The notes below the pieces were generated by a model, which saw only the letters and a list, made by a program, of their open reading frames with translations, searched no databases and was not told the DNA's origin. Positions 1 to 30,471 of a stretch of 30,471 bases of DNA are shown here, piece after piece. How positions within the stretch are numbered: the stretch's first letter is position 1; each line of letters opens with the position of its first letter. The DNA lies in the IMG/VR virus record IMGVR_UViG_3300045988_009951, positions 1 through 30,471 of that record. One strand, written 5' to 3'. The position numbers were made by a program, and so were the translations under genes. The stretch is from a virus.

Positions 1-1
1 A

Positions 2-328: not shown

Positions 329-330
329 TC

Positions 331-651
331 ATGAAAGAAAATAACAAACAAGTCGTATTTTACAACGCTGAAAAAGATGGATTTCTTATGAGCTATAAAG
401 ACAAAGGGAACCTAGCGTTTACAGCGACTTTTGACGACAGACTTTGGAAAGCGTTACATCTACCATTTGAACCATACGAAAAACAAAAAGCTGACATTGA
501 CAAGCTTGCTGAAGCGTTTGGCTGCGAAGTGCTTATCGTAGAAGCCGAATACAATGTAACTAAACTTGATGGATCAGACTTCGAACGTACAGAGCGTGAA
601 GGATCCTTGAAGAATGGAATCGAAGCGCTTATGGAATTATTGACTAATTAA
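331..651 (+). CDS. Hypothetical early phage protein (106 aa)
   Basis: ORF with an AAGGAGAA Shine-Dalgarno inside the end of the preceding gene (translational coupling). No recognisable domain. Confidence 0.7.
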   Translation: MKENNKQVVFYNAEKDGFLMSYKDKGNLAFTATFDDRLWKALHLPFEPYEKQKADIDKLAEAFGCEVLIVEAEYNVTKLDGSDFERTEREGSLKNGIEALMELLTN

Positions 652-723
652 CAAATTAAGCAGTGGTGGGAGGGTAGGCATTAAATATGGCAGATAATCA
701 AAAATACTACACAGGGGGTAGAA

Positions 724-1503
724 ATGGGAAACCGTAGAATGATAAGTAAAACTGTTACTCAAACACATCGATTCTTACGTTTGCCCCTAGAAGCACAAGC
801 TCTTTATTTTCACCTTATCCAAAATTGCGACGATGATGGCGTGGTGGAAGCATTCCCTATTCTCAGAATGATAGGGGCTAACGAGGATAACTTAGGGCTT
901 CTAGTTATCAAGCAATTCGTAAAACCTCTTAATGATGAAATGGTTTATTTCGTGGTTGATTTCCACGAACAAAACACTGTCAGAAAAGACAGATATGTAC
1001 CTAGCATTTATAAAGGATTGCTAGAGGAAAACACCGATGAAACCACTGGTAAACCACCGGTAAACCAAACGACAACCACTGGTTGCCCCAATATAAGTAA
1101 AGATAATACAAGTAAATATAATTTAAGTAAATCTAACAGTAGAGAGGATGAAACATCAGAAAATAGTCAAATTTCTTCTTCTGCTGCTGATGACCAATCA
1201 GATTTTAATATTTTCGGACATTATCAAGAACGAATTGGGCCTATCGATGGATACCAAATGGAAAAACTGAAAGGCTATATCGATTTCGATAAGTTAGAAA
1301 TCATGTTGGTCAAACGCGCCATAGATAGAGCCGCTGACAACTCGAAACGCTCATTTGGATATGTCAATTCTATTTTAAAAGCTTGGGCACAAAACGGGAT
1401 TCATACCGTTGCTCAGCAAGATGAAGAACAACGCCAATTTGACAGTCGTAAAAGCTTTGATGAACAGCCAGTTAAATTTGGACCAGCTTGCAGCAAATAC
1501 TAG
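724..1503 (+). CDS. Phage replisome organiser / replication initiation protein with a C-terminal DnaD-like domain
   Basis: N-terminus RFLRLPLEAQALYFHLIQNCDDDGVV resembles the phage replisome-organiser N-domain. C-terminus IGPIDGYQMEKLKGYID...RSFGYVNSILKAWAQNGIHT is a DnaD/DnaB_2-type repeat. A low-complexity linker carries DNA iterons. GGGGG RBS before the ATG. Confidence 0.8.
   Translation: MGNRRMISKTVTQTHRFLRLPLEAQALYFHLIQNCDDDGVVEAFPILRMIGANEDNLGLLVIKQFVKPLNDEMVYFVVDFHEQNTVRKDRYVPSIYKGLLEENTDETTGKPPVNQTTTTGCPNISKDNTSKYNLSKSNSREDETSENSQISSSAADDQSDFNIFGHYQERIGPIDGYQMEKLKGYIDFDKLEIMLVKRAIDRAADNSKRSFGYVNSILKAWAQNGIHTVAQQDEEQRQFDSRKSFDEQPVKFGPACSKY
1041..1137. repeat. Putative phage origin of replication (iterons plus AT-rich repeats) inside the replisome-organiser gene
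   Basis: AACCACTGGT occurs at 1041-1050 and 1074-1083. GGTAAACCA occurs at 1048-1056 and 1059-1067 (11-bp phasing). Three tandem 15-bp AT-rich units follow: ATAAGTAAAGATAAT / ACAAGTAAATATAAT / TTAAGTAAATCTAAC (1093-1137). Confidence 0.55.
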
Positions 1504-1514
1504 AGGTGATATCT

Positions 1515-2297
1515 ATGAGTTTAGAGCAAACAGCCAAGCAAATGCGAAGGCAGTACATGAAGCCTAGCGATAAATACTGCGATAAGCACCAACGGCACTA
1601 TGTCACGATTCAGTTTCCGAACTCAAAACCCTACACAGTGTGTGAGCTTTGCCATCGGGAAGAACAAGACCAACAGAACGCCATCAAAGCACAAAAACAG
1701 TACAACCGAGAGCAAGAGCAGAAACGCTTGTACTTCCTCAAAGATTTCAGCTTGCTGGATGATGATTTGAAGAATGCTAGCTTTGGCAACTACAAGGCAT
1801 TGACCAGAGAGCAGAAAGAAGACTTGAAAAATGTCAGAAATCAACTTAAAGGCTACCTTGACGGTCAAGACTACAACATTGTCTTAATCGGAGATACTGG
1901 AGTGGGCAAAAGCCATCTAGCTTATTCAGCACTTAAAGCTTTGTCTGATCACACGAAAAAGATGGGGCTATTCATCAACGTGGTTGACCTATTAGCCAAA
2001 ATTAAAGAGGATTTCAGTCTTGAAGCTGAATATATCAGACGCATATCGGAAGCTGAATGGCTAGTCCTCGATGATTTAGGGACTGAAAAAGTAACAGAGT
2101 GGTCTAACGGTATCTTGTATAGCATTTTGAACAAGCGTACCAAAACTATCATTACCACTAACTTAAGTCCACGGGACATCATGGGTACTTATGGAAAGCG
2201 TGTCTATTCTCGAGTTTTTAAGAAGACAGGACTTGGAACGACGAATGAACATGTTTATCAATTCAAGACACAACAAGATAAGAGGATGATGCTTTGA
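1515..2297 (+). CDS. DnaC/DnaI-like AAA+ helicase loader
   Basis: Walker A GDTGVGKS, Walker B WLVLDDLG, N-terminal Cys/His cluster CDKH...CELC. ATG 1515 preferred over 1488 because it follows an AGAGGTGA RBS. Confidence 0.85.
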   Translation: MSLEQTAKQMRRQYMKPSDKYCDKHQRHYVTIQFPNSKPYTVCELCHREEQDQQNAIKAQKQYNREQEQKRLYFLKDFSLLDDDLKNASFGNYKALTREQKEDLKNVRNQLKGYLDGQDYNIVLIGDTGVGKSHLAYSALKALSDHTKKMGLFINVVDLLAKIKEDFSLEAEYIRRISEAEWLVLDDLGTEKVTEWSNGILYSILNKRTKTIITTNLSPRDIMGTYGKRVYSRVFKKTGLGTTNEHVYQFKTQQDKRMML

Positions 2298-2476
2298 CAG
2301 AAAAAGAAGTTAAGCTAAAACTCTTTGAAGACTACGAGCGTATTCATGGGCTTGTAGTCTCGAAAGAGCACAAACAGAAAATGATGGATGATTTAGATCT
2401 GTATTCGTTTATCGAGAAAATTAACGAATATATGTATTTTGCTAAGAAATCAACGCAGATTTTTAGCGCACACTAG
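2294..2476 (+). CDS. Small hypothetical phage protein (60 aa, TTG start overlapping the upstream stop)
   Basis: ORF only. The start overlaps the TGA of the loader gene (TTGA). No domain recognised. Confidence 0.45.
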   Translation: MTEKEVKLKLFEDYERIHGLVVSKEHKQKMMDDLDLYSFIEKINEYMYFAKKSTQIFSAH

Positions 2477-2612
2477 AAAGCCCCTCTAAAATCGATTTTA
2501 AGGCGTGTGTTTTGCTCGGTGGTATAAATTGACTACGTCACTGTAAAGATTGCACTACACCCCATTAAAATGCGAAATAAGGGCATTCAAAACAAAAAAG
2601 GAAGACAAAGAC

Positions 2613-3368
2613 ATGACAAATCAACTACAAACACAAAACAAAAGAGATATTTCAACAGATACAAGTGCATGGACGTTTCAAGATATTAAACGCTACTACG
2701 ACCCACAAGATTTGTTGACAGAAAAACAAGTTGGGCAAGCTTTATCGCTGATTAAAGGTCGTAACCTCAACCCATTGCTAAACGAGGTCTATATCGTAGC
2801 TTACAAAAAGAAAAATGGTGGGGCTGAATTTGGCTTAATTGTCTCAAAAGAAGCATTCTTGAAGCGTGCAGCACAAAATCCAAACTATGAAGGATTTGAA
2901 GCCGGAGTGGTAGTTGTTGACAATTCTGGCGATATGGTTGAGCGGAAAGGGGCACTATTGCTACCTAACGACAATCTTGTCGGTGGTTGGGCAAGAGTTT
3001 ACCGCAAGAATTTCAAGGTTCCTGTAGAGGTTTTTGTTAGCCGTGAAGAATACGACAAAAAACAAAGCACTTGGAACGCTATGCCAGCAACCATGATTAG
3101 AAAGACTGCTCTTGTCAATGCCTTACGTGAAGCTTTTCCAGAGGATTTAGGAAGTATGTACACCGAGGATGATGGCGGTGAAACATTCGACAGGATCAAA
3201 GATGTAACACCACAAGAAACACAAGAGGATGTTAGAGCTCGCAAGATGGCTCAAATCGAACAAATGAAACAAGAACAATCGCAATTCCAACAAACAAGTG
3301 AAGACAGCTCTCAACCAGTTATCAACTCACAAAATGAGTCGGTTCAAGGCGAGCTTCTCGACTATTAA
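2613..3368 (+). CDS. recT: RecT/Bet-family single-strand annealing recombinase
   Basis: NPLLNEVYIVAYKKKNG..FGLIVSKEAFLKRA...GGWARVYRKNF...WNAMPATMIRKTALVNALREAFPEDLG matches the RecT/Bet core as I recall it. ATG 2613 follows AAAGGAAGA. The upstream TTG at 2550 is unlikely to be the start. Confidence 0.85.
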   Translation: MTNQLQTQNKRDISTDTSAWTFQDIKRYYDPQDLLTEKQVGQALSLIKGRNLNPLLNEVYIVAYKKKNGGAEFGLIVSKEAFLKRAAQNPNYEGFEAGVVVVDNSGDMVERKGALLLPNDNLVGGWARVYRKNFKVPVEVFVSREEYDKKQSTWNAMPATMIRKTALVNALREAFPEDLGSMYTEDDGGETFDRIKDVTPQETQEDVRARKMAQIEQMKQEQSQFQQTSEDSSQPVINSQNESVQGELLDY

Positions 3369-3381
3369 CGAGGTGTGAACA

Positions 3382-4392
3382 ATGCAAGAATTACAAGTTA
3401 ATATTGAACAAGCCAAAGTTGAGATTGTAGGGCAAGAGGTTTTTGAAAAAGGTATTGCTGATGTAGTTGCAAAGTATCAAAATTACACAGTCACCGCTGG
3501 CACTATCAAAGACGACAAGAAAGTCTTGGCTGAGTTACGAAAATTAACCAAGCAAATTTCAGACGAACGTATCAAAATCAAGAATGAGTTATCAAAACCA
3601 GCGACGGATTTTGAAAAATATATCAAGGAAACAGAGAAACCTCTTAAAAACATTATCAACCAAATTGCAAATGATGTGAAAGAGTTCGAAAATCATCAAA
3701 AAACACTGAGACTGGACACGGTTAAAAGCTATCTGGCCAACAAAGCTAGTGAGTACATGATTGACCCTCGTATTTTTGATGAAAAAGCAACGGAATACAT
3801 CAAAGTTGGCGATTTCATGGCAGATGGTGTAACTCTAAAGAAAGCGACTATGAAGGCATTAGACGACATGGTTACTTTTGAATATCAAAAACAAGAGGAA
3901 TTTAAAAAAGCCACTCAATCCATATCTGGACTTTGTTCAGAGTACGGAATGACCGACCAACCGTATATCCGTATGCTTCAAAATCTGACATTAGCAGAGG
4001 TGTTAGATCAGATTCGTTCAGACCATGCTTTTGAATTACAAAAACAAGAAGCTGAACGCAAAAGACAAGAACAAGAAGCACTACGACAAGCTGAATTACA
4101 AAAGCAAAAAGAAAAAATAGTAGAAACAACACCAACGGCATTAGTTGTTGATTCAGAAACAGGCGAAATTATCGAAAATACGCCAACAATTGAAGAAGCT
4201 AACATTCCAGAATCAAAACGTTATCGCCAAAAAATGACGCTTGAAGTCTACTTTGAAGATTCAGACGATAAAGACAGATTTAAACGTTTACTTAGCGAAA
4301 ACGGCTGGGAATACAAACAAAACTACACTGTCAGAGGCTATCAAAACATAGCCAGTATGACCGAAGAAGAATTGAAAATACATCTAAATTAA
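3382..4392 (+). CDS. Coiled-coil phage protein, DUF1351-like, of the kind usually found next to RecT and SSB
   Basis: Position between recT and ssb. Long helical Lys/Glu-rich sequence. N-terminus VNIEQAKVEIVGQ...VTAGTIKDDKKVLAELRKL resembles DUF1351 members. Family assignment is from memory only. Confidence 0.6.
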   Translation: MQELQVNIEQAKVEIVGQEVFEKGIADVVAKYQNYTVTAGTIKDDKKVLAELRKLTKQISDERIKIKNELSKPATDFEKYIKETEKPLKNIINQIANDVKEFENHQKTLRLDTVKSYLANKASEYMIDPRIFDEKATEYIKVGDFMADGVTLKKATMKALDDMVTFEYQKQEEFKKATQSISGLCSEYGMTDQPYIRMLQNLTLAEVLDQIRSDHAFELQKQEAERKRQEQEALRQAELQKQKEKIVETTPTALVVDSETGEIIENTPTIEEANIPESKRYRQKMTLEVYFEDSDDKDRFKRLLSENGWEYKQNYTVRGYQNIASMTEEELKIHLN

Positions 4393-4458
4393 TGTCAAGA
4401 CAAAAATCTAAACCCACGCTGGACGACTTCATCGTGAATAGAGAAAAGGAGAAAAATT

Positions 4459-4962
4459 ATGTTAAATTCGGTCTGCCTTGTTGGTCGCCTAACCCGTGAC
4501 CCCGAACTTAAATATACAGGTAACAATATCGCAGTAGCATCTTTCAGCCTTGCGGTTAACCGTAACTTCAAGGACGCTAACGGTGAACGGGAAACAGATT
4601 TTATCAATTGCGTTATCTGGCGCCAGCAAGCTGAAAATTTGGCTAACTGGGCTAAGAAGGGTGCATTGATTGGAATCACTGGACGCATCCAAACCCGTAG
4701 CTACGAGAATCAGCAAGGTCAACGAGTGTATGTAACCGAGGTGGTCGCTGAGAACTTCCAAATGTTGGAGAGCCGTGCAGCGCGTGAAGGTGGTAGCACT
4801 AACCAAGGCAACACATCGGGAGCGTCTGGCAATGACAACGGCTATGCAGGGCCTTACGGTCAGCAAGCACCGCAACAACAAGGGCCAAACTTTGCAAGAG
4901 AAAGCAGGCCATACGGGAACGCAAACCCTATGGATATCACTAGTGATGATTTGCCGTTCTAA
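4459..4962 (+). CDS. ssb: Single-stranded DNA-binding protein
   Basis: OB-fold core [29 protein letters not shown]...[37 protein letters not shown]. Gly/Gln/Pro-rich tail ending in the acidic tip DDLPF. Confidence 0.95.
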
Positions 4963-4973
4963 TTAGGTGAAAT

Positions 4974-5366
4974 ATGAAACTAGAATTTCTATTACCAAGG
5001 TCGAAAACTAAACCTGCTCAAAATTTAGTTATCAACAGTAATGACAGATTTCACTATCAAGCAGAGGGTCGGATGGTCAAAAAACTGCGATTAATAGCGA
5101 GAGCAGAAGCAGGGCTTAACATTAAGCCAGTATATAGCCCGGATAAGCCTTGTAAGGTGCTTGTCACGGTCTATGCACCAACCAGACGAAGATTAGACCC
5201 ACCTAACCTATATCCGACGGTTAAAGCTATTATAGACGGCTTGACGGACGCTAATTTGTGGCCAGACGACAATCACGAAGTTATCAAAATGATGTCGTTT
5301 CAGTATGGCGGGCTAAGTGGTGAGTCTGGGAAATTTAAGATTGTGTTAGACATTGAAGGAGCGTGA
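4974..5366 (+). CDS. rusA: RusA-like Holliday junction resolvase
   Basis: Motif PTRRRLDPPNLYPTVKAIIDGLTDANLWPDDNHEV parallels E. coli RusA [30 protein letters not shown]. The second Asp of the D-x-D pair is Pro here. The position after ssb is typical. Confidence 0.6.
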   Translation: MKLEFLLPRSKTKPAQNLVINSNDRFHYQAEGRMVKKLRLIARAEAGLNIKPVYSPDKPCKVLVTVYAPTRRRLDPPNLYPTVKAIIDGLTDANLWPDDNHEVIKMMSFQYGGLSGESGKFKIVLDIEGA

Positions 5367-5367
5367 A

Positions 5368-5676
5368 ATGAATAGCAAATATAAAGACAAGCTAGTCGGT
5401 GTATATGCTCCGGGCAGTTACGACCACACAAGTGTGTTAGGCCAAACGCAAGAGTTTTCGAAGTGGTTCTGGGCCAATTGCGAAGATATGGAATTTATCA
5501 GCGCCAAGCTAGGTATCAACACCAAGAAACTCAATCGGATTTTAACGCTGGAGCAACTACCGGACAAAGAATTACTGAAAGGAATGATGGAATTATGCGA
5601 TACAAATTTACAAGAACACCGTTCGCAGACGGAACGAATAGAATTTATGTACGTTCCAAAGAAATTGAGCAGTTAG
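5368..5676 (+). CDS. Hypothetical phage protein (102 aa)
   Basis: ATG 5368 follows a GAAGGAG RBS. The 3' third overlaps an alternative-frame ORF (see findings). Confidence 0.55.
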   Translation: MNSKYKDKLVGVYAPGSYDHTSVLGQTQEFSKWFWANCEDMEFISAKLGINTKKLNRILTLEQLPDKELLKGMMELCDTNLQEHRSQTERIEFMYVPKKLSS

Positions 5677-5700
5677 AAAAGATTTTGTTAGGAGAGGAAA

Positions 5701-6207
5701 ATGATGGATAGACAAGAAGCAGTACAGAAACTAGCAACAGCGGGACGCCTTTCAATGGCCCACGCAGAAGACCTATACGATTCTTTCTTCCCTAAACCAG
5801 TAGTACCACAATATGTGGCGGATTGGTATGAGGAGCATAAGGATGAGTTCGAAGTAAATCTATTTCAAGCTGTCTATGAGGCTTCAGATGGCTACACTGT
5901 TGACTCGACAAACAAGTTTTGGCATTGGTTGATGTCTAAGGATATCGATGCACTCACAATTCTCGTCAACGTGCACCAGTTCGGCTATGAGGTCGAGAAA
6001 GAGGCTAGGTATACGGTTAAAATTAAAGGTCGTTTAGGGCAATATCTAGGCAAATATTACTTAAACAACGAGGAATTAATGCTACAGTTTACAAGGACTC
6101 AATATAGTGAGGGTGGAAGTTTTACGAGAACAGAGCTAGAAGCGAACGGCTTTGGCTGGGTGTTTGATTGCCCAGGCGTTGAAGTGAAAGAGGTGGAGGG
6201 TGAATAA
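5701..6207 (+). CDS. Hypothetical phage protein (168 aa), possibly DUF1642-like
   Basis: AGGAGAGGAAA RBS. Typical streptococcal-phage early-region protein. Family name is from memory and not verified. Confidence 0.7.
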   Translation: MMDRQEAVQKLATAGRLSMAHAEDLYDSFFPKPVVPQYVADWYEEHKDEFEVNLFQAVYEASDGYTVDSTNKFWHWLMSKDIDALTILVNVHQFGYEVEKEARYTVKIKGRLGQYLGKYYLNNEELMLQFTRTQYSEGGSFTRTELEANGFGWVFDCPGVEVKEVEGE

Positions 6208-6514
6208 CCTAATTAATAAAATTAATAACTGGGCAGACGAGCGAAATTTAAAACAAGCTGACCCGAAAATTCAGTGGATGCGTGTGACAGAGGAAGTCGG
6301 AGAGATTCGGGATGTACTCTTGAAACCGACGAAATTCACTGAGCCACAAGCTGCGTTGAAAGATGCAATCGGTGATACGCTGGTAACAATTATCGTACTA
6401 GCACACCAACTAGACCTTGATGTAACTGAGTGTCTCGGTATTGCGTACGAGGAAATCAAGAATAGAAAAGGAAAGATGATTAATGGAACTTTCGTCAAAG
6501 AAGAAGACCTCTAA
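6200..6514 (+). CDS. MazG-like all-alpha nucleoside triphosphate pyrophosphohydrolase
   Basis: Metal-binding helix motifs EEVGEIRD and DAIGDTLVTIIVLA. Size ~100 aa. GTG start overlaps the upstream stop (GTGAATAA). Confidence 0.75.
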   Translation: MNNLINKINNWADERNLKQADPKIQWMRVTEEVGEIRDVLLKPTKFTEPQAALKDAIGDTLVTIIVLAHQLDLDVTECLGIAYEEIKNRKGKMINGTFVKEEDL

Positions 6515-6815
6515 GAAGTGGTACACGGATAGTTTGACTATTTCAAGCGCTATCTTATTCATTAGTCTAGCTGTCAACATGTTGTCAGTCTACTACGTTC
6601 TGACAGTGCCACGTAGAGTAGAAACGGTAACTATCCATCGGGTAGATAATGCTGGTTCTGAGATGTATGGCAAGGTGACTGGGAAAGAGAAGATTAACGA
6701 TTTATACACTATCGATTGCGGTGCTTACGGTAAGTTTCTGGTAAACAAGGAGCAATATGACAGTGTTAACGTTGGGGATGATATCCCTAGCTACTTAAGG
6801 GGGCGAGGACAATGA
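6483..6815 (+). CDS. Small membrane-anchored phage protein (110 aa, one N-terminal TM helix)
   Basis: Basic N-terminus KKKTSKK followed by the hydrophobic stretch LTISSAILFISLAVNMLSVYYVL. No catalytic motif. Confidence 0.6.
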   Translation: MELSSKKKTSKKWYTDSLTISSAILFISLAVNMLSVYYVLTVPRRVETVTIHRVDNAGSEMYGKVTGKEKINDLYTIDCGAYGKFLVNKEQYDSVNVGDDIPSYLRGRGQ

Positions 6816-7192
6816 TGCCTAGATTTAGAGCGTGGGATGGCGGCTCGCTATGCCGCATGTACAGTCCAGAGGAAGTGATGGTCGGCAATGGCGACATTTG
6901 GGTTATCGATGAGGATGGCGTTGCTGGTGAATGGATTGTGAATAATGACCTTGTTCTCATGCAATCAACTGGACTTACTGATAAAAATGGCAAAGAAATC
7001 TTTGAAGGGGATATTATTGATTCGGAGGATGGAATCCTATCCGGCGTAGTTGAGTTTAGACCGGATTTAGGAATGTTTGTTAGCACATTGATTAAATATA
7101 ATAATTTCGAACGTTTATGTAATGTCGCTGATTCAGTGCATATTATCGGTAATATTTACACGAATCCAGAGCTGGCAGAGGTGAACTCATGA
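6812..7192 (+). CDS. YopX-family phage protein
   Basis: RAWD...LMQSTGLTDKNGKEIFEGDII...IIGNIYTNPEL are the hallmark YopX motifs. Confidence 0.85.
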   Translation: MMPRFRAWDGGSLCRMYSPEEVMVGNGDIWVIDEDGVAGEWIVNNDLVLMQSTGLTDKNGKEIFEGDIIDSEDGILSGVVEFRPDLGMFVSTLIKYNNFERLCNVADSVHIIGNIYTNPELAEVNS

Positions 7193-7896
7193 CCAAATAC
7201 CAATATTCAGGACTGACACCAGAGCTGCATCAGCGGTTAGTCAGTGAACATGCGGCACTGAGGGAAACGTACAAAGGGAGTGCGTATAGACAGTTTTTCC
7301 GAGCTGTAAAACAGTGTGATGAGAAAAGAGCCGTTATCATTTATCAAGCACTTAATAATGCAGTTATGGAACGTGCCAGGATATCGCCCCAGACTGTTAA
7401 AAGGCTAAAAGGTATCATTTCTGACGAGCTATTCAACGACCTGCAAGATTATCTGTCTGAAAACTATACGAGGGGTAAAACCACGCGCCCAATGTTAGAT
7501 AAAACAAACGCAGGACTGCCAGAGCACCTTTTCAAGCGTTTCCGTGAAGAAGTTGAAGTTTTGCGAAAGGAACACCCTAAGGACTTTAATATCTATATTA
7601 GAGAAAAGAAAGAGGTCAATAAGAGACAAGCTAACAAAACCCGAAACGCCATCAATTGTTGCTATGCGGAGAAAGCTACTCTAACACCTTTGATGGCTAT
7701 TTACATGGAAGGCGTGCTGTCAAGAGAGCTATTCAGTAAAATTGCCGATTATGTCTTCAATCATTATGAATGGTCCGAGAGACTAGACGATGAAATTGAT
7801 CGTATTATTCTTAAATATCGGACTAAGGGCGAGTTAGGGCGTAACAAAATTACGGTCAGAAAAGCCCTATATAAAGCCTATGCGTTAGGCGTGTAG
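7189..7896 (+). CDS. Hypothetical phage protein (235 aa) made of two homologous halves
   Basis: ORF with an ATGA overlap to yopX. Residues ~9-100 and ~110-200 align: LTPELHQRL...ISDELFNDLQDYLSENY versus LPEHLFKRF...LSRELFSKIADYVFNHY. Confidence 0.7.
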   Translation: MTKYQYSGLTPELHQRLVSEHAALRETYKGSAYRQFFRAVKQCDEKRAVIIYQALNNAVMERARISPQTVKRLKGIISDELFNDLQDYLSENYTRGKTTRPMLDKTNAGLPEHLFKRFREEVEVLRKEHPKDFNIYIREKKEVNKRQANKTRNAINCCYAEKATLTPLMAIYMEGVLSRELFSKIADYVFNHYEWSERLDDEIDRIILKYRTKGELGRNKITVRKALYKAYALGV

Positions 7897-7926
7897 CTAG
7901 TGAGGGTTCGACTCCCTCGCTAGCTA
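7894..7926 (+). other. tRNA-like minihelix (acceptor stem plus T-arm mimic). Not a complete tRNA.
   Basis: 13-bp stem (TAGCTAGTGAGGG / CCCTCGCTAGCTA, one G-T wobble) closing the 7-nt loop TTCGACT. GGGTTCGACTCCC is a consensus tRNA T-arm. No D arm or anticodon arm upstream. Confidence 0.6.
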
Positions 7927-8249
7927 TTAGTCTGTCAAACACTAAAAAATAGAATATAGATTTTAGTGGCTTGAACACTTTTCAACACCGAGCAAGCTGA
8001 CAGACCTTGCTCAAACAAAACCCCAGCAAATTTAAGAAAAATCGCATTACTAAAAAAAGCCAAAGATCTCGCTGGTGTCTTGGCTGGAAGGAGGTGATAA
8101 AAGGCCCAAGAAACAACCCAAAAACAAATACATTAATCTTTCTTTTATAAAATCTCTTAATGTTTTTTGGGCCAAACAAAAAAAGACCGACACAATGGCC
8201 GGCACTCTTTGGAAGTCAACACTACTATTATACCAAAGAGGACAGAACA

Positions 8250-8666
8250 ATGCTATTGCCGGAAATTGATGAGAAAGCAACTATCAGAGGTTGCAAGCGA
8301 AAACTTCGAGAATATCCAAGATGGCGAGAGATAGCACACGATAGCGCTGAGCAGAAGATTACACAAGAGTTCACTTTTATGCCAAGAGGTGGCAGCGGAG
8401 TGAGCAGACCCGTGGAGAATATTGCAGTCAGACGTGTCGATGCTATGAACGAGCTAGAAGCCATAGAACAAGCAGTTAGCGGGCTATATCGTCCAGACTA
8501 TCGTAGAATACTGACAGAGAAATATCTAGCTTATCCACCTAAACCAAACTGGCAAATCGCCCAGGCAATCGGATTCGAAAGGACAGCCTTTCAAGGATTA
8601 CTAAATAATGCTATCCTAGCATTTGCAGAATTGTATAGAGATGGCAAATTAGTTGTGGAACATTGA
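8250..8666 (+). CDS. ArpU-family phage late transcriptional regulator
   Basis: LLPEIDEKATIRGCKRKLREYPRW...RRVDAMNELEAIEQAV..L....RRILTEKYL....PNWQIAQAIGFERTAFQGLLNNAILAFA resembles ArpU/RinA-type sigma-region-4-like regulators. Sits immediately upstream of the terminase genes. ATG 8250 follows AAAGAGGA. Confidence 0.8.
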   Translation: MLLPEIDEKATIRGCKRKLREYPRWREIAHDSAEQKITQEFTFMPRGGSGVSRPVENIAVRRVDAMNELEAIEQAVSGLYRPDYRRILTEKYLAYPPKPNWQIAQAIGFERTAFQGLLNNAILAFAELYRDGKLVVEH

Positions 8667-8716
8667 AATAACGGTATTTTGACGGTTAATTCACGGTGTC
8701 TAACAACTGTTTAAAG

Positions 8717-8725
8717 TGGTATTAT
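8717..8725 (+). promoter_or_regulatory. Candidate extended -10 promoter element (TGGTATTAT) upstream of the packaging operon
   Basis: TGn + TATTAT at 8717-8725. No convincing -35, so it would be activator-dependent or an extended -10 type. Confidence 0.3.
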
Positions 8726-8747
8726 TATATTATCGAAGAAAATTCAG

Positions 8748-8778
8748 AGACGGCTCACTTTGTGGGTTGTCTTTTTTT
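8748..8778 (+). terminator. Intrinsic terminator-like hairpin between arpU and terS
   Basis: 11-bp stem 8748-8758 / 8762-8772 (3 G-U wobbles), TTT triloop, followed by a T6 run 8773-8778. Confidence 0.5.
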
Positions 8779-8797
8779 CAGTATCAGAAAGGAGTTG

Positions 8798-9241
8798 ATG
8801 GAAAATGGGATGACCGAGAAACAAATAAAGTTTGCCGATGAGTACATCATCAGCCTAAACGCTACTCAAGCGTACAAGAAGGCTTATCCTAGTATTAAGA
8901 AGATAAGGACAGCGGAAGTCAATGGTAGTAAGCTACTAAGAAATACTGAGGTCAAGGCTTATATAGACGAACGACTGGATCAGTTAAAGTCAGAACGCGT
9001 TGCGGATCAACAAGAGGTCATGGAATTTCTAACAGCCGTCATGCGTGGAGAAGTTGAAGAGCCATTGCTCGTCCTAGATGGCGAGGGGATGCAACGCATT
9101 GCTCAAGCTAAGCCGAATGTTGCCACTCGGCGAGCTGCGGCGGTTGATATCGGCAAGCGTTACAGAATGTGGACAGACAAGGTTGAAGCCGATGTAACGC
9201 AAGATATCAACATCAATGTCGGTGAATGGAATGACGATTAA
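8798..9241 (+). CDS. terS: Terminase small subunit (Terminase_2 / P27-like)
   Basis: MTEKQIKFADEYIISLNATQAYKKAYPS....AEVNGSKLLRNTEVKAYIDERL is the typical helix-turn-helix N-terminus of this TerS family. Start is uncertain (ATG 8798 or 8810). The part of the ORF upstream from GTG 8696 is unlikely to be coding. Confidence 0.8.
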   Translation: MENGMTEKQIKFADEYIISLNATQAYKKAYPSIKKIRTAEVNGSKLLRNTEVKAYIDERLDQLKSERVADQQEVMEFLTAVMRGEVEEPLLVLDGEGMQRIAQAKPNVATRRAAAVDIGKRYRMWTDKVEADVTQDININVGEWNDD

Positions 9242-10496
9242 TCTTGAAATCAATCCAAGCAAGGTGTTTAATCGGCATATCTATGAGCATTTGTTTGATT
9301 ATGACACATTCACTGAGGTCCATTACGGTGGGGCATCTAGCGGTAAGAGTCACGGGGTCTTCCAGAAGATAGTCCTCAAAGCTCTTAAGAAGTGGGATAA
9401 GCCCCGCAAAATATTGATATTGCGTAAGGTAGGGTCTACGGTTCGTGATTCGGTGTTTGCGGACGTTCAAGCAGCCTTATCTTATTTCGGCGTGCTTAAT
9501 CTATGCAAGGTCAACATGAGCGCATTCCGTATTGAGTTACCGAACGGGGCTGAGCTGATTTTTAAAGGGATGGATAACCCAGAGAAAATCAAGTCTATCA
9601 AAGGCATATCAGACGTGGTCATGGAAGAAGCGTCAGAGTTTACGCTTGACGATTACACGCAGTTAACGCTTCGCTTGAGAGATAGAGCCCACAAACAAAA
9701 ACAAATCTATTTGATGTTTAACCCGGTGTCTAAGGCTAACTGGGTATATAATGCGTTTTTTGTGAAGAACCCTAAAAATACAGTGGTTTATCAAACGACG
9801 TACAAGGACAATCGTTTTCTGGACGACTTGACCAAGGAGAATATCGAGGAGCTAGCAAACCGAAACGAAGCCTACTACAAAATCTATGCTTTGGGTGAAT
9901 TTGCCACCCTCGATAAGTTAGTATTTCCAAAGTACGAAAAGAGATTACTCAATAAGGACGAGCTTAAACAGCTACCGTCCTTTTTTGGTCTTGACTTTGG
10001 TTTCACTAACGATCCCACAGCGTTCATGCACGTCAAAATAGACCGAGAGAATAAGCGGCTATATATCCTAGAGGAATATGTCAAGAAGGGCTTGCTTAAC
10101 AACCAGATAGCAGAAGCTATTACTAGCCTTGGTTATTCAAAAGAGGTGATTATGGCCGACTCAGCAGAGCAGAAATCTATTGCTGAACTGCAAACACTGG
10201 GCTTGCGTCGAGTTATCCCGGTAGATAAGGGCAAAGGCTCGGTTCTACAAGGTATTCAGTTCTTGCAGCAATTCGACATCATCGTTGATGAGAGATGTGT
10301 CAAGACGATTGAGGAACTTGAGAACTATACATGGCAGAAAGATAAGCATACAAACGAGTACATCAACAAGCCATGCGATAGTTATAACCATTGTATCGAC
10401 GCTATTAGGTACGCACTGCAAAACCTTATTTTCGTCAAGGATAAGCAGGATGTAGACGCTAAGATTAGACGGGTTAACAAACTGATAAGGAGATAG
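9231..10496 (+). CDS. terL: Terminase large subunit, PBSX family (headful packaging type)
   Basis: Walker A-like HYGGASSGKSH, ATPase coupling motif VVMEEASE, C-terminal nuclease region ADSAEQKSIAEL...DSYNHCIDAIRYAL. Start is either 9216 or 9231. Confidence 0.9.
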   Translation: MTINLEINPSKVFNRHIYEHLFDYDTFTEVHYGGASSGKSHGVFQKIVLKALKKWDKPRKILILRKVGSTVRDSVFADVQAALSYFGVLNLCKVNMSAFRIELPNGAELIFKGMDNPEKIKSIKGISDVVMEEASEFTLDDYTQLTLRLRDRAHKQKQIYLMFNPVSKANWVYNAFFVKNPKNTVVYQTTYKDNRFLDDLTKENIEELANRNEAYYKIYALGEFATLDKLVFPKYEKRLLNKDELKQLPSFFGLDFGFTNDPTAFMHVKIDRENKRLYILEEYVKKGLLNNQIAEAITSLGYSKEVIMADSAEQKSIAELQTLGLRRVIPVDKGKGSVLQGIQFLQQFDIIVDERCVKTIEELENYTWQKDKHTNEYINKPCDSYNHCIDAIRYALQNLIFVKDKQDVDAKIRRVNKLIRR

Positions 10497-10497
10497 A

Positions 10498-11997
10498 ATG
10501 ACGAACACAACACATAGTGCTGACGACATCTTACATGAAGGGCAGTACATTCCTAGATCATACCAATTTGAGCGAGACATGGAACCGACTAGCTTGCAGA
10601 AACGTGAAGACTTCCTTCGTTTTCCGAAAGAAGCTAACACCCACTTCATGGCTCAATCAGCTGACGACCTAGTGGACACGTTTCAAGGACGAGAGAAGTT
10701 AGAGAAGATGGTAGCTCAGTTCCAAGATGGACAGATAGACCGCTTGAATATCCTAGAGAGCTACTCAAACGGGAACAACTACACCATTCTAAATGGTCGT
10801 AAACGACTAGAGCCAGAGAAAGCTGACTACCGTATTAGGCATGATCTGGGCGGACAAGCTAGCCGCTTCTTCACTGGTTATACGGTGGGTCAACCTATTT
10901 CAATTGGTGCTACTGACACTGACAGCGACTTGACGGCTATTGATGACTTCAACGCTTACAACGACATTGAAGCTCTTAACCGTGAGTTAGTCTATGACGC
11001 TTCACGTTTTGGGCGAGCGTTTGAGCTGCATTATTATGATGAGTTTGGCAATCCAGCAGTGGTCTTGATTGATGCAAGGGAGATGTTCACAATCCGTAGC
11101 GCAGACGTCCGAAAAGATATCATTGCGGCTGTTCATTGCCCAGTGTACAACGGTGAAATGTTTGTCACGGTCTACACTGATAGCAAGATTGTCAGCTATG
11201 ATCCAAACTGGCAGGAAATCGAGCGTAAAGAAAACCCGTTCGGAATGGTGCCGGTAGTTGAATGGCAGAATAACCGAGAGCGTTCGGGAGATTGGGAGAA
11301 AGGGATTCCAATCATTGACGCTTACGACGCAGCAGAGTCGGACACAGCTAACTACATGTCAGACCTTAACGATGCCATGCTGGTTATCAAGGGTGATGTC
11401 GAAAGTACTGGCATGAATGCGTCTGACATCATGAAAATGAAGCACGCTAACATGCTAGTACTTGAGAGTGGTGTCGGACACAACGGGCAGCAAACGTCAC
11501 TAGATGCCGGCTATATCTACAAACAATATGATGTCAGCGGTGTCGAAGCGTATAAATCACGTTTGATTAAAGACTTCTTCCGCATTGTTGGATTGCCTAA
11601 CTTGCAAGACGATTCGACTTTCTCAGCTACGTCTGGGATCGCTATCCGCTACAAGCTAGTTGATTTGCAGCAAGTTACAGCCGTTAAGCGTGGGTTCTTT
11701 GTCAAGGCGCTCAGACGACGCTATAAGCTGCTTGAGTTGCTATCTAACAATCTCAAAGGTATCGAACCAGTGGACGCTGACATGCTGACATTTACGTTCC
11801 ATGAGAACCTGCCAACGGATGTATGGGCTGAGATTCAATCTGCTATCAATTCCGGCATGGAAATCTCACAAGAGACGCTTATGGAATCAGCTAGCTTCAC
11901 AGACGCTCGCAAAGAAAAGAGCCGTTTGCTCAAAGAGGGCGGGGCTACTGATCTAGAAGTTAGTCAGATTGTAGGTGTTGAGGATGATGACGAATAA
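10498..11997 (+). CDS. Portal protein (SPP1 gp6-like)
   Basis: 499 aa, directly after terL. Overall similarity to SPP1-type portals as recalled (e.g. ...FGRAFELHYYDE..., ...AESDTANYMSDLNDAMLVIKG...). Confidence 0.9.
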   Translation: MTNTTHSADDILHEGQYIPRSYQFERDMEPTSLQKREDFLRFPKEANTHFMAQSADDLVDTFQGREKLEKMVAQFQDGQIDRLNILESYSNGNNYTILNGRKRLEPEKADYRIRHDLGGQASRFFTGYTVGQPISIGATDTDSDLTAIDDFNAYNDIEALNRELVYDASRFGRAFELHYYDEFGNPAVVLIDAREMFTIRSADVRKDIIAAVHCPVYNGEMFVTVYTDSKIVSYDPNWQEIERKENPFGMVPVVEWQNNRERSGDWEKGIPIIDAYDAAESDTANYMSDLNDAMLVIKGDVESTGMNASDIMKMKHANMLVLESGVGHNGQQTSLDAGYIYKQYDVSGVEAYKSRLIKDFFRIVGLPNLQDDSTFSATSGIAIRYKLVDLQQVTAVKRGFFVKALRRRYKLLELLSNNLKGIEPVDADMLTFTFHENLPTDVWAEIQSAINSGMEISQETLMESASFTDARKEKSRLLKEGGATDLEVSQIVGVEDDDE

Positions 11998-27810: not shown

Positions 27811-28530
27811 ATGAGTAAAATTGAATCAAGTATTGCACGCATGCACCATCTACAATCAATTCCGGTTCATTATGACATGGGTGACCGTTACGGAAACGAC
27901 GCTGACGGCGACGGACGCATCGAATTTGACTGCTCATCAGCGGTAAGCTATGCACTCGAAATCAACTTAAATAACAACACGGAATCACTTCAACAAGCAT
28001 TGCCAGCGATTGGGTATGCGAAAGTGTTTGACGCTGTAGATGGCACATTCGATGGTCAACGTGGGGACGTTGTCATTTGGGCACCTCGTGACGGCTCAAG
28101 CTCGCTCGGTGCGTTTGGCCACGTATTGATTATGACTAGTGATAGCACAGCTATCCATTGCAATTATGGAATGGACGGTGTGACTGAAAATGATTATAAT
28201 TATATTTGGGATCTAAATGGCCGTCCTCGTGAAATTGTATTCCGTGAGAGTGGTACACCTCTTCCAGCACCAGTCCAAAGCGAATTTGAGCGTGAATTAG
28301 ATGTCAATACACGCTTAGAGAAGTCAGACAAGCCTTACTATGAAGGCACACTTACCACTGACTACTACGTTGAAGCTGGTCCTCGCATCGATAGCCAAGA
28401 CAAAGAATTTCTTCCAGCGGGCACAAGAGTCCGTGTTTATGAGAAACTAAACGGCTGGTCTCGAATCAACCACCCAGACAGCGCTCAATGGGTTGAAGAC
28501 CAGTATTTGGACGATTGCACAGATATGTAA
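27811..28530 (+). CDS. Endolysin: N-terminal Amidase_5-type peptidoglycan hydrolase plus C-terminal SH3b-like wall-binding domain
   Basis: FDCSSAVSYAL (catalytic Cys), QRGDVVIW and FGHVLIM (His) match streptococcal phage Amidase_5 lysins as recalled. The C-terminal GTRVRVYEKLNGWSRINH is SH3b-like. No signal peptide. Confidence 0.85.
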   Translation: MSKIESSIARMHHLQSIPVHYDMGDRYGNDADGDGRIEFDCSSAVSYALEINLNNNTESLQQALPAIGYAKVFDAVDGTFDGQRGDVVIWAPRDGSSSLGAFGHVLIMTSDSTAIHCNYGMDGVTENDYNYIWDLNGRPREIVFRESGTPLPAPVQSEFERELDVNTRLEKSDKPYYEGTLTTDYYVEAGPRIDSQDKEFLPAGTRVRVYEKLNGWSRINHPDSAQWVEDQYLDDCTDM

Positions 28531-28619
28531 TTAATTAGACCACGAAAAAATAAAATAACAAAAAGGAGTACATCACCTCCCCTCACACTGCAATAGGGAT
28601 ACCATGGCAGTAGTGGTCG

Positions 28620-28647
28620 AAGCCCTGGCATTTGCTGGGGCTTTTTT
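28620..28647 (+). terminator. Rho-independent terminator of the lysis operon
   Basis: AGCCCTGGC-ATTT-GCTGGGGCT (9-bp stem, two G-U) followed by T7. Confidence 0.85.
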
Positions 28648-28695: not shown

Positions 28696-28721
28696 GCCGC
28701 CCCTTTTATGGGCGGTTTTTT
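28696..28721 (+). terminator. Second rho-independent terminator
   Basis: (G)CCGCCC-CTTTTAT-GGGCGG(T) followed by TTTTTTATTTT. Confidence 0.8.
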
Positions 28722-28759: not shown

Positions 28760-28788
28760 TTGACAAACTATCATATATGATATATAAT
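28760..28788 (+). promoter_or_regulatory. Consensus sigma-70-type promoter (TTGACA-17 bp-TATAAT) with a 14-bp perfect palindrome in the spacer
   Basis: TTGACA 28760-28765, TATAAT 28783-28788. TATCATATATGATA 28769-28782 is its own reverse complement. Confidence 0.8.
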
Positions 28789-28821: not shown

Positions 28822-29157
28822 ATGAAAAAAGAACTTATGACAAACGCTTGGGAAATCGCAAAAGAAGCTGCTAAAAAATTTGGCGGTAAAGCTATCGAAT
28901 ACATCGCAGGAGCAATGAAAATGGCATGGGCTGCTATCAAAGATAGTGACACTAGCCTTGCTAAATTCCAAGCAGTTGAAGCTAAAATGCGTAAATCTGG
29001 TAAATGGTCAATGGTTGAAGTGCTTGATTCTGCTAAAGTGGTTAAATTCAACGAAGTAATGCACAAAGTAGGTGCTTACTACGGTATCGAAGTAGTAGCT
29101 GACGGTTCTAACATCGGTACTTACTACATTTCTGAAAAAGTTTGGGACGTAGCTTAA
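28822..29157 (+). CDS. Moron operon gene 1: unknown cytoplasmic protein (111 aa)
   Basis: AAGGGAG RBS. Codon choice dominated by GCT/GGT/CGT/TAC/ATC/GAA/AAA, as in highly expressed genes. Helical Ala/Lys-rich N-terminus (NAWEIAKEAAKKFGGKAIEYIAGAMKMAWAAIK) and a beta-rich C-terminus. No TM helix or signal peptide. No family recognised. Confidence 0.8.
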   Translation: MKKELMTNAWEIAKEAAKKFGGKAIEYIAGAMKMAWAAIKDSDTSLAKFQAVEAKMRKSGKWSMVEVLDSAKVVKFNEVMHKVGAYYGIEVVADGSNIGTYYISEKVWDVA

Positions 29158-29177
29158 TAAAAAAAGGAGAAAATAAA

Positions 29178-29441
29178 ATGACTAAATATAAACAAGGATT
29201 GAAAGAGCAGCGTGAGAGAGTACAAGCCATTCGCAATGAAGTTTTCTCAGACAAAGCAGAAAAACTAGAAACAGATCTCGTGAGAATTGCGAACGGAGAT
29301 GTTTATAAAATCATTCCACGATTTGGGACTAAATACGAAGATAGCCGAATCATCAAATTAGATCCAGAAGATGTGGAATATCACATCGAAGAAGCTCGCA
29401 AAGTTAGAGAGCTTGCGAAAATTATGGCAAGCAAGGATTAA
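29178..29441 (+). CDS. Moron operon gene 2: unknown charged protein (87 aa)
   Basis: ATG 29178 lies 8 nt after AAGGAG. The TTG at 29142 is unlikely to be the start. No TM helix or signal peptide. No family recognised. Confidence 0.75.
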   Translation: MTKYKQGLKEQRERVQAIRNEVFSDKAEKLETDLVRIANGDVYKIIPRFGTKYEDSRIIKLDPEDVEYHIEEARKVRELAKIMASKD

Positions 29442-29458: not shown

Positions 29459-30010
29459 ATGATTATCAACAACGACATCAAAGAGTTAATCTTGGAATAT
29501 GTAGGACGTTATTTCAAGTTCGAGAATGACTTCTATAAATTGCCAAACATCAAATTCACTGACGCAAACTGGCAAAAATTCAAGAACGGTGACACTTCCA
29601 TCGAAAAAATGGGAGCAGCACGGGCGAATGCCATGCTTGATTGCCTATTTGATGATTTTGAACTTGCCATGATTGGTAAGGCTCAAATTGATTACTACAT
29701 GGATAATTCTTTAAAAATGAATATGCCATTTTACGCCTATTATGATCAATTCAAAAAACAACAACTCTTAAAATGGCTTGAAAATAGCCACGATGACATC
29801 ATTGGAGGGGCTGGCAGAATGTACACGGCAAGCGGAAACTGGATTGCTAGTGCTTATTTAGAAATTGCATTAGAATCTAGTTCCATCGGGGACGGTGGCT
29901 ATATGCTTCAAATGCGTTTCAAGAACTACTCACGAGACCCTAGACCGATACCAGCAGGTCGCCAAAATCGACTTGAGTGGATTGAAAATAATTTAGAGAA
30001 TATCCGTTAA
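29459..30010 (+). CDS. Moron operon gene 3: unknown cytoplasmic protein (183 aa)
   Basis: AAGAGGAA RBS. AT-rich relative to the structural genes. No TM helix, signal peptide or catalytic motif that I recognise. Confidence 0.8.
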   Translation: MIINNDIKELILEYVGRYFKFENDFYKLPNIKFTDANWQKFKNGDTSIEKMGAARANAMLDCLFDDFELAMIGKAQIDYYMDNSLKMNMPFYAYYDQFKKQQLLKWLENSHDDIIGGAGRMYTASGNWIASAYLEIALESSSIGDGGYMLQMRFKNYSRDPRPIPAGRQNRLEWIENNLENIR

Positions 30011-30011
30011 A

Positions 30012-30035
30012 GACTAGGTTTATCCTAGCCTTTTT
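30012..30035 (+). terminator. Weak terminator-like hairpin after the moron operon
   Basis: GACTAGG-TTTAT-CCTAGCC (5 contiguous bp plus one) followed by T5. Confidence 0.45.
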
Positions 30036-30150
30036 GTGTATTCGTGATAAATCGTTAGACATTTAATTCAAATAAAGGTACACTATAGATGTACTTTTGG
30101 ACGATTACGTGCAGAATGTTTTTGTTTTTTCTATTGTCACTTGGTAGCTC

Positions 30151-30471
30151 ATGCTGCCAAGTCTTTTTTATGCTCAATCAAGAATTTTAGTATCCTTGAT
30201 TGAAATGCTGGTCGTGCTTCTCATTATCAGTATTCTCCTTTTGCTCTTTGTACCTAACTTGAGCAAGCAGAAGGATTCTGTTAAAGAGACTGGAAATGCG
30301 GCTGTGGTCAAGGTCGTGGATTCTCAAGCAGAACTTTATGAAATGAAGAATAACAAGACAGCTAGCTTAGCCTCTCTTGTTTCAGAAGGTCAAATCACGC
30401 AAAAACAGGCAGATTCATACAATGATTACTATGCGAAACATGGTGGCGAAAGCCGCTCAGTGGCCAATTAG
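30151..30471 (+). CDS. comGC: Competence pseudopilin ComGC/ComYC with its 5' end replaced by prophage-junction sequence (probably inactivated while the prophage is integrated)
   Basis: LIEMLVVLLIISILLLLFVPNLSKQKDSVKETGNAAVVKVVDSQAELY is the conserved ComGC N-terminal helix and core. The expected basic leader and the (G/A)-F-T-L prepilin cleavage site are replaced by MLPSLFYAQSRILVS. There is no Shine-Dalgarno upstream of the ATG. Confidence 0.85.
   Translation: MLPSLFYAQSRILVSLIEMLVVLLIISILLLLFVPNLSKQKDSVKETGNAAVVKVVDSQAELYEMKNNKTASLASLVSEGQITQKQADSYNDYYAKHGGESRSVAN
30174..30203. mobile_element. Candidate attR core: inverted repeat TCAATCAAG-N12-CTTGATTGA at the phage/comGC junction
   Basis: 9-bp perfect inverted repeat. 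The right arm is comGC coding sequence (L-I-E of the conserved LIEML). ComGC-like sequence is absent to the left of it. Confidence 0.5.

Follow-up and report, generated by a model that had tools for sequence, protein, structure and literature searches.

Prophages that insert into the pilin gene comGC, or comYC, of the competence machinery, and that do so by means of the integrase lineage considered here, have been documented in Streptococcus pneumoniae, S. mutans, S. parauberis and Lactococcus lactis (PMC4774983, PMC12378983, PMC8637289, PMC10713843). In pneumococcus, it was shown experimentally that comYC-disrupting prophages abolish transformation (PMC4774983; see also PMC12637031), and the core of the serine-integrase group PPH100 in comGC is ACCAACATCTCCACCAA (PMC8637289). 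The S. mutans prophage phiKSM96 has been reported to be inserted between comGB and comGC, a position described as intergenic (PMC10713843), whereas the insertion that we examine here is inside comGC. It is found at the end of a stretch of viral DNA of 30,471 nucleotides (IMG/VR record IMGVR_UViG_3300045988_009951, positions 1 to 30,471), and this whole stretch is termed the window below. In all likelihood, the window covers ~30 kb at the right end of a temperate siphovirus of ~38 kb, which was integrated by a large serine recombinase (LSR) into comGC of S. salivarius and which ends at the right attachment site, attR. No paper describing a comGC/comYC prophage in S. salivarius was found in our coverage of the literature, which is incomplete.

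The last open reading frame (ORF) of the window (30151-30471, plus strand) encodes 106 aa: 15 phage-derived codons, and then host comGC from Leu+3 to its stop. It is translated as MLPSLFYAQSRILVS-LIEMLVVLLIISILLLLFVPNLSKQ...SVAN, with LIEMLVVLL... directly after MLPSLFYAQSRILVS and an in-frame stop directly 5' of the ORF. The NCBIfam model pilin_ComGC, the ComGC equivalog, matches its residues 15-94 (E 1.2e-34). The uninterrupted comGB-comGC DNA (L001, L002) can be aligned with the window only from nt 30197 on, a point that falls within the right arm of a 9-bp inverted repeat discussed below, and the first 15 codons are phage DNA that stands in place of the native leader MKMMLKKLNAVKLRAFT. A functional ComGC prepilin is expected to display a basic leader, G or A at -1, F at +1 and Glu+5; the hybrid, ...SRIL|VSLIEM, has Leu at -1 and Val at +1 and keeps Glu+5 alone. 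No Shine-Dalgarno sequence precedes the hybrid ATG (TTGTCACTTGGTAGCTC-ATG), and the native comGC has GGAAGGA 10 nt upstream of its own ATG. The hybrid ORF is predicted to be non-functional. A preliminary description, made from the letters of the window alone, had already recognised ComGC from LIEMLVVLL onward, noted that the basic leader, the prepilin peptidase site and the ribosome-binding site were missing, and placed the switch from phage to host sequence at the inverted repeat; all of this is borne out.

Because positions 30197-30471 are identical at 274 of 275 nt to comGC in S. salivarius genomes, the host can be identified as S. salivarius, and the odd N-terminus, judging from the intact alleles, is not a natural form of the gene. 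A pattern scan over one genome per species gave 7 loci (S. salivarius strains, S. raffinosi, Streptococcus sp.), and all seven encode the intact allele MKMMLKKLNAVKLRAFTLIEM and not MLPSLFYAQSRILVS. The intact ComGCs retrieved by a protein search are mostly 104-109 aa long and start with MKMMLKKLNAVKLRAFTLIEM, and most of them carry the prepilin motif PF07963 (together with the ComGC C-terminal domain PF26697). A second class, made of dozens of clusters of 117-132 aa, matches the phage-derived residues of the window and is devoid of PF07963; the upstream sequences of these clusters are mutually unrelated and frame-shifted. Among the hybrid-type database proteins, PF26697 is present and PF07963 is absent in every one shown. 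The very same hybrid ORF was found on 21 other contigs, and similar attR junctions on 17 IMG/VR contigs. Six of the 21 were inspected, and they carry phage genes or small unannotated genes upstream of the ORF, where the contig extends that far, and comGD-GG downstream; the order 3' of the identical junction is comGD, comGE, comGF, comGG, a methyltransferase gene and ackA. Given these 21 contigs with the identical ORF, the 17 attR contigs and the dozens of hybrid protein clusters, the comGC-inserted prophage appears to be common in human-associated metagenomes. More distant ComGC relatives (P0064, P0067, P0070 and P0073, 67-73% identical to the hybrid of the window) also have a foreign N-terminus, followed by (RILVT)LIEM, (RILVS)FIEM, RIEM or LFEM, and their hosts are presumably other streptococcal species. 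They suggest that the integrase lineage may hit the same codons in further hosts.

The left end of the prophage was recovered from a metagenome scaffold, L046, which was found by an exact look-up of the DnaD-like protein of the window. This scaffold is 100.000% identical to window positions 1-11503 and reaches 9.3 kb further left; the first 41 nt of the window had no exact match in IMG/VR. The order on L046 is comGA (T2SSE), comGB (T2SSF), the 5' end of comGC, attL, and then the genes of the LSR, a PH/SHOCT protein, an ImmA-type peptidase and a helix-turn-helix repressor. The attL site reads ATGAAAATG...CGTGCTTTTACGCTGATTGAAATG | AATGTAACTAAAAC..., that is, the 5' end of comGC fused to phage DNA. 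The two ends of another, independent IMG/VR prophage contig, L024 (attL) and L012 (attR), have the same arrangement; the attL of L024 adjoins a ComGB fragment (NCBIfam E 1.9e-62), and its recombinase is 95% identical. The preliminary description had expected comGA and comGB on the far side of a prophage that splits the comG operon, and this is what the scaffolds contain: comGA, comGB and, right after comGB in both L046 and L024, the missing 5' end of comGC at attL, with comGD-GG downstream of attR on the contigs that carry the identical hybrid. The comGC stub at attL (L046 1493-1660; also L024) forms an open ORF of 53-55 aa, made of MKMMLKKLNAVKLRAFTLIEM and then of antisense phage sequence, and it lies behind comGA-comGB with its prepilin leader and cleavage site intact. 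At attL, transcription coming from the host comG genes would enter the 3' end of the LSR gene in antisense orientation.

This LSR gene lies on the opposite strand of L046, ends 17 bp from the attL core and encodes 480 aa. Its product contains the Pfam domains Resolvase (1.9e-41) and Recombinase (2.4e-20), a Zn_ribbon_recom match that falls just under the gathering cut-off (4.7e-05, 24.1 bits against 25.3 bits), and the Y-x-R-x-S motif in the form YVRVS. In the PDB, it matches the catalytic domain of the TP901-1 integrase (3.8e-45) and the C-terminal domain of the A118 integrase, with its recombinase, zinc-ribbon and coiled-coil region (2.7e-21). By its domain content, the integrase is identified as a large serine recombinase. 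It shares 71% of its residues with the IPP46 integrase (S. pneumoniae 670; 480/480 residues aligned, no gaps), and is about 70% identical to many pneumococcal prophage integrases and 63% identical to the recombinase of S. mutans phiKSM96.

All four attachment (att) sites could be recovered: attB from 7 genomes, attL, attR, and attP from 5 viral contigs. When the phage arm of attR was joined to that of attL, the result was a predicted attP sequence, which an exact-pattern scan then found on 5 IMG/VR viral contigs. As it is present on these contigs, and lies well inside two of them (L026 and L029), sibling phages can be said to exist in an excised or replicating form. The only sequence common to attB, attP, attL and attR is TGATTGAAATG, the 11-bp core revealed by the four-way comparison (30197-30207, plus strand), which covers the last 2 nt of Leu+3 and the codons Ile+4, Glu+5 and Met+6 of mature ComGC. 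Around this core, attP is near-palindromic over ~50 bp (ATCAAGAATTTTAGTATCCTTGATT-GA-AATGAA[G/T]G...TAAAAC...). The best dyad axis falls on the dinucleotide GA at 30202-30203 (plus strand; core offset 5), with which the Glu+5 codon GAA begins, in 5/5 attP sites (4 S. salivarius versions and phiKSM96). The P half-site, the phage arm of attP that is kept in attR (30177-30201, plus strand), mirrors the P' arm across GA at 16-19 of 25 positions, or 14-17 of 22, and in shuffled sequences the best axis has a mean of 11.3/22 and reaches at least 16 with a probability of about 0.002. A short identity between attP and attB (11 bp), combined with a dyad-symmetric attP of ~50 bp, is the pattern of LSR systems, and attL and attR are exact parts of attB and attP, without target duplication beyond the core, as conservative exchange leaves them. 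Strand exchange most probably takes place at the central GA of the Glu+5 codon, a dinucleotide that we infer from the symmetry of attP and from the general LSR mechanism, in which the cut is staggered over the central 2 bp and excision requires a recombination directionality factor. Glu+5 is an invariant residue of type IV pilins. Since the left part of attL joined to the right part of the attR of the window gives an intact 108-aa ComGC, excision would be expected to restore comGC exactly. In the P arm (30177-30201), a TTTTA motif is 4 bp more distant from the centre than it is in the B arm (L002), the former having TTTTA-N7-TGATT and the latter TTTTA-N3-TGATT, and no counterpart of TTTTA was seen in the B' arm. 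This spacing recalls that of the zinc-ribbon-domain motif in the attP and attB half-sites of A118-type integrases.

We can now consider what the insertion would mean for the comG operon. In the proposed mechanism, the 480-aa phage LSR would pair the ~50-bp attP with an attB made of the mature ComGC codons +3 to +6 (L-I-E-M). Integration would leave comGA, comGB and a 5' stub (the leader and AFTLIEM) at attL, while attR, at a distance of ~38 kb, would hold the rest of comGC and comGD-GG, which would follow a strong phage terminator and be severed from the ComX-dependent promoter upstream of comGA. The distal comGC' would be fused to 15 phage codons that bring no basic leader, no A|F site and no ribosome-binding site. 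The major pilin would then be unprocessable and the lysogen unable to assemble the transformation pilus, because of the terminator, of the lack of a nearby ComX box and of the absence of a leader and cleavage site in the hybrid. The comG operon is very probably inactivated in the lysogen, as far as its sequence and the analogy with pneumococcus can tell; the loss of transformation in S. salivarius is deduced from this anatomy and from the pneumococcal experiments (PMC4774983). As serine recombination is conservative, excision would rebuild the intact 108-aa ComGC.

The terminator mentioned above is a strong intrinsic one (30139-30170, plus strand), with a 10-bp stem (30139-30162), a 4-nt loop and the T-run CTTTTTTAT. 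Its RNA fold has an energy of -16.2 kcal/mol (z -4.67), and 0/200 shuffled sequences are as stable. The ATG of the hybrid (30151-30153) sits at the stem-loop junction, with its A and T in the loop, while its G opens the 3' arm of the stem. The hairpin is found in 16/18 attR junctions among those listed, in all attP contigs and in SA-TP2, the nearest named S. salivarius phage. Since it is also present in SA-TP2, a phage with a tyrosine integrase, it can be read as the right-end terminator, or insulator, of the phage. No match to the ComX-box motif TACGAATA was found near the junction, and the single match in the window (24803, minus strand) is at chance level. Rfam gave nothing at the gathering threshold over the whole window, and only a chance-level miRNA match in 29900-30471. 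The ~130 bp of non-coding DNA that contain the hairpin (30036-30168) are conserved between the phage of the window and SA-TP2, with an abrupt divergence at about 30169, which marks a point where integrase/att cassettes are exchanged as modules. Positions 30056-30084 hold a weak promoter-like site, and the short ORFs in 30036-30168 are frame-variable between sibling phages.

One can also imagine a reversible switch instead of a plain knockout, in which ComX-driven transcription from the comGA promoter would pass through comGB and the comGC stub at attL and read antisense into the convergent operon of the LSR, PH/SHOCT, ImmA and repressor genes, and would thereby couple competence to the control of the prophage. 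Its outcome could be an excision that restores comGC, or an induction that kills the cells that are 'curing' themselves by transformation, and the 53-55-aa attL peptide, with its intact leader and cleavage site, could in addition titrate the prepilin peptidase. These proposals are drawn from the orientation of the genes, and we consider the switch rather unlikely.

The 9-bp inverted repeat deserves a separate discussion, because the preliminary description took it for the core geometry of the integrase. The repeat as such is real: TCAATCAAG (30174-30182) and CTTGATTGA (30195-30203) are perfectly complementary across a 12-nt spacer, and this TCAATCAAG-N12-CTTGATTGA structure (30174-30203) lies off-axis, inside or overlapping the P half-site and the core. 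It could be argued that a tyrosine integrase made the junction and that the two arms are core-type sites flanking the overlap region, which measures 6-8 bp in such systems; the repeat is perfect, its right arm straddles the boundary between phage and host, and such a repeat is expected at about 0.035 per 436 bp. The window as a whole, however, holds 4 perfect 9-bp inverted repeats with a spacer of 3-20 nt (3 of them distinct), for 2.5 +/- 2.1 in dinucleotide shuffles, so the repeat is unremarkable window-wide and mildly unusual at its own spot. The integrase that adjoins attL is a serine recombinase. The spacer AATTTTAGTATC is not shared with attB, which has GCTTTTACGC or GCTTTTACAC, and strand exchange is therefore impossible there; it is beyond the right end of the spacer, at 30197-30207, that attP and attB agree, and the arms do not flank a common overlap region. 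The centre of the repeat (30188/9) is 14 bp left of the GA dyad axis, and its axis scores 11-13/22 in the four S. salivarius attP versions, which is about the null level, versus 14-17/22 for GA; in the attP of phiKSM96, it does not rank with the best axes. Across 30 att sites, the arms occur in 7 haplotypes (counted with an attR search pattern in which 7 nt of the left arm, the inner ones, were set in advance), and every variant loses pairs (8, 7, 6 or 5/9 remaining) without any compensation. The left arm TCAATCAAG is absent from the phiKSM96 attP, though the attP centre is nearly identical, and the related phage SA-TP2, which does have a tyrosine integrase, has a wholly different att region. 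The RNA fold of the repeat (-10.3 kcal/mol, z -2.0) is not compelling. A tyrosine-integrase core site is thus extremely unlikely, and the att comparison leads us to reject it. The repeat seems best read as the by-product of two constrained elements rather than as a pair of core-type sites, its right arm being the core and the inner P half-site, and its left arm the outer edge of the P half-site.

If an LSR made the junction, one may still ask what became of the gene. The phage could have been shaped to supply a replacement 5' end, as is common among phages that insert at the ends of genes, so that ComGC is made and competence is kept: the phage arm partly resembles the host sequence that it displaces (SRILVSLIEM versus KLRAFTLIEM), and Glu+5 and everything 3' of it are intact. 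We find this very unlikely, since the hybrid has neither the basic leader nor the G/A-1 and F+1 site, PF07963 is lacking from every hybrid-type protein shown, no ribosome-binding site precedes an ATG that is caught at the stem-loop junction of a terminator, and the distal genes are ~38 kb from the comGA promoter. The reading frame upstream of FYAQSRILVS, moreover, varies between sibling junctions (P0001, P0004, P0021, P0025, P0027), so there is no coding selection there, and the resemblance of the two arms is explained by both being half-sites of the same recombinase. An unlikely alternative is that of a domesticated or defective prophage that no longer excises, with comGC permanently inactivated in the manner of a pseudogene. 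The window indeed holds no proof that the present copy is active, its ability to excise being deduced, and no directionality factor was recognised; against this, none of the modules is damaged and their ORFs are long and unbroken, the LSR has its full length, attP forms of sibling phages that share the arms of this prophage occur on 5 viral contigs, and the occurrence of the same junction with diverse phage backbones implies frequent fresh integrations. Lastly, MLPSLFYAQSRILVS could be a natural comGC allele or the junction an assembly chimera, for which the ORF being open is all that speaks. The canonical leader in 7/7 genomes and in the intact metagenomic alleles, the identical hybrid ORF on 21 independent contigs, the similar attR junctions on the 17 IMG/VR contigs and the matching attL and attP sites reduce this chance to virtually nil, and both variants of the idea were rejected. 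The integration of a temperate phage by an LSR into comGC has, for its part, some points that weigh against it. The integrase and attL are outside the window and are assigned through L046, which is identical over 11.5 kb, and the contig of L046 as such would stop inside comGC', some 220 nt short of the end of the window. No recombination directionality factor was recognised by sequence. The GA dinucleotide is deduced from symmetry, so that any position within the 11-bp core is formally possible, and attB has little dyad symmetry about GA (9/25). A weak promoter-like match inside comGC (30200-30227, 9/12) might transcribe the distal genes. The anatomy, the four att sites, the type and orthology of the integrase and the free attP forms are direct observations.

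The remainder of the window (1-30196, plus strand) is the right-hand ~30 kb of the ~38-kb siphovirus prophage, with replication, packaging, head, tail and lysis genes and a moron unit; the lysogeny module and the integrase are left of it. PHROGs families in the window include a DnaD-like loader, the small and large terminase subunits, the portal, the major head protein, the tape measure, Dit and the holin, and Pfam identifies an Amidase_5 lysin (27811-28530), whose gene is followed by two terminator-like hairpins (28619-28644 and 28696-28716). The moron unit starts with a sigma-70-type promoter that matches the consensus TTGACA-17-TATAAT at 12/12 positions (28760-28788, plus strand). It then contains, all on the plus strand, a Gp111-family ORF (28822-29157; Pfam PF07410, E 1.8e-26), an ORF of 99 aa (29142-29441) without match in Pfam, NCBIfam, PHROGs or PDB, and a gene of 183 aa for the anti-CRISPR AcrIIA6 (29459-30010), which matches the structures 6eyy and 6eyx over its full length (E 4e-104) and has 79.7% nt identity to the annotated AcrIIA6 gene of the S. 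salivarius phage SA-TP2. A terminator-like hairpin follows acrIIA6 (30014-30028, plus strand; -8.1 kcal/mol, a weak signal), so that the three genes form a self-contained promoter-terminator unit, from 28760-28788 to 30014-30028. The 99-aa ORF could be another anti-defence gene. The preliminary description had linked this operon to a shutdown of DNA uptake; that part does not hold, as the unit encodes an anti-CRISPR and not a DNA-uptake function.

At the other extremity, the window starts with the C-terminus (2-328) of an early-region protein of 681 aa, the full gene of which is on L046 (7560-9605), with GbpC (E 4.5e-24) and Adhesin_P1_N domains. It is an antigen I/II-like glucan-binding or adhesin module carried by a phage, and may help in oral colonisation as a lysogenic-conversion factor. 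A second large serine recombinase, of 568 aa and with a DUF4368 domain, is encoded on two S. salivarius contigs (L040 16398-20321 and L041 6476-10399), about 6 kb downstream of comG, where it adjoins relaxase and TrwB-like coupling-protein genes; this locus probably represents an integrative element of the mobilisable or conjugative kind.

S. salivarius is a dominant commensal of the mouth and the gut and a probiotic chassis, and its competence (ComRS/XIP) is exploited in genetic engineering. A common family of comGC-inserting prophages would explain non-transformable strains, and would widen the "phage versus transformation" conflict, known from pneumococcus, to include the salivarius group. 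The set of att sites provides a marker for such lysogens, by polymerase chain reaction or in silico, and the LSR/att pair, with its four sites defined, could serve in genome engineering. The integrase family would seem to anchor on the codon for the invariant pilin residue Glu+5, and one integrase lineage could therefore follow comGC across species.

Regarding the origin of the phage, SA-TP2 was considered as the source of attP and rejected, because it is shared with the window only up to about 30168, and then has a tyrosine integrase and an unrelated att region. A distant-mode blastn search with 30120-30330 against 50,697 phage records gave nothing, and no GenBank phage in that collection has the same attP arm or covers more than 16% of the window. 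A siphovirus backbone of the S. thermophilus/S. salivarius type has, on this comparison, acquired a comGC-targeting LSR/attP module. SA-TP2 departs from the window at about 30169, which puts the boundary of this module some 34 bp to the left of the crossover.

The closest described relatives are the pneumococcal comYC prophages (PPH100 group; integrase SP670_2190 of S. pneumoniae 670-6B, IPP46), which share with the prophage of the window an orthologous LSR (the 71% full-length, ungapped match), the pilin codons that are hit, the split of the operon and a lysogeny module of the same ImmA/repressor type. With an integrase orthologous to SP670_2190, an orthologous site, and comGA/GB parted from comGC'-GG, the prophage falls in the class of Croucher et al. 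2016. The pneumococcal core ACCAACATCTCCACCAA is the reverse complement of TTG GTG GAG ATG TTG GT, that is, L-V-E-M-L-V, the same codons as those of TGATTGAAATG ((L)-I-E-M), but the identity core described here is shorter and of different sequence. Unlike the pneumococcal prophages, this one has S. salivarius as host, in which competence is controlled through ComRS, has a backbone from the S. thermophilus/S. salivarius siphovirus pool, and carries AcrIIA6. S. mutans phiKSM96 (OQ627164) has an almost identical attP centre (TTTTAGTATCCTTGATTGAAATGAAAGATAGTAAAA), the same GA axis and the 63% identical recombinase, and its AcrIIA5 adjoins an attP of the same type, as AcrIIA6 does here; it differs in an outer P arm without TCAATCAAG, in the absence of a terminator hairpin beside attP and in the gene order around attP. 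The Listeria phages A118 and phi10403S and the lactococcal phage TP901-1, whose enzymes serve as references for large serine integrases, are distant in sequence and have in common with this prophage the enzyme architecture, the shortness of the att sites and the quasi-palindromic form of attP. Two of them, A118 and phi10403S, are also found in a competence gene, but in that of the regulator, comK, and not in that of the pilin, and phi10403S excises reversibly, in what is termed 'active lysogeny', a regulated excision that produces no virions and gives the host gene back. For the prophage of the window, the joined att sites display the capacity for such a precise restoration. What the window brings to this picture is a known phage tactic, that of the pneumococcal and S. 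mutans prophages, in another species and with no new mechanism.

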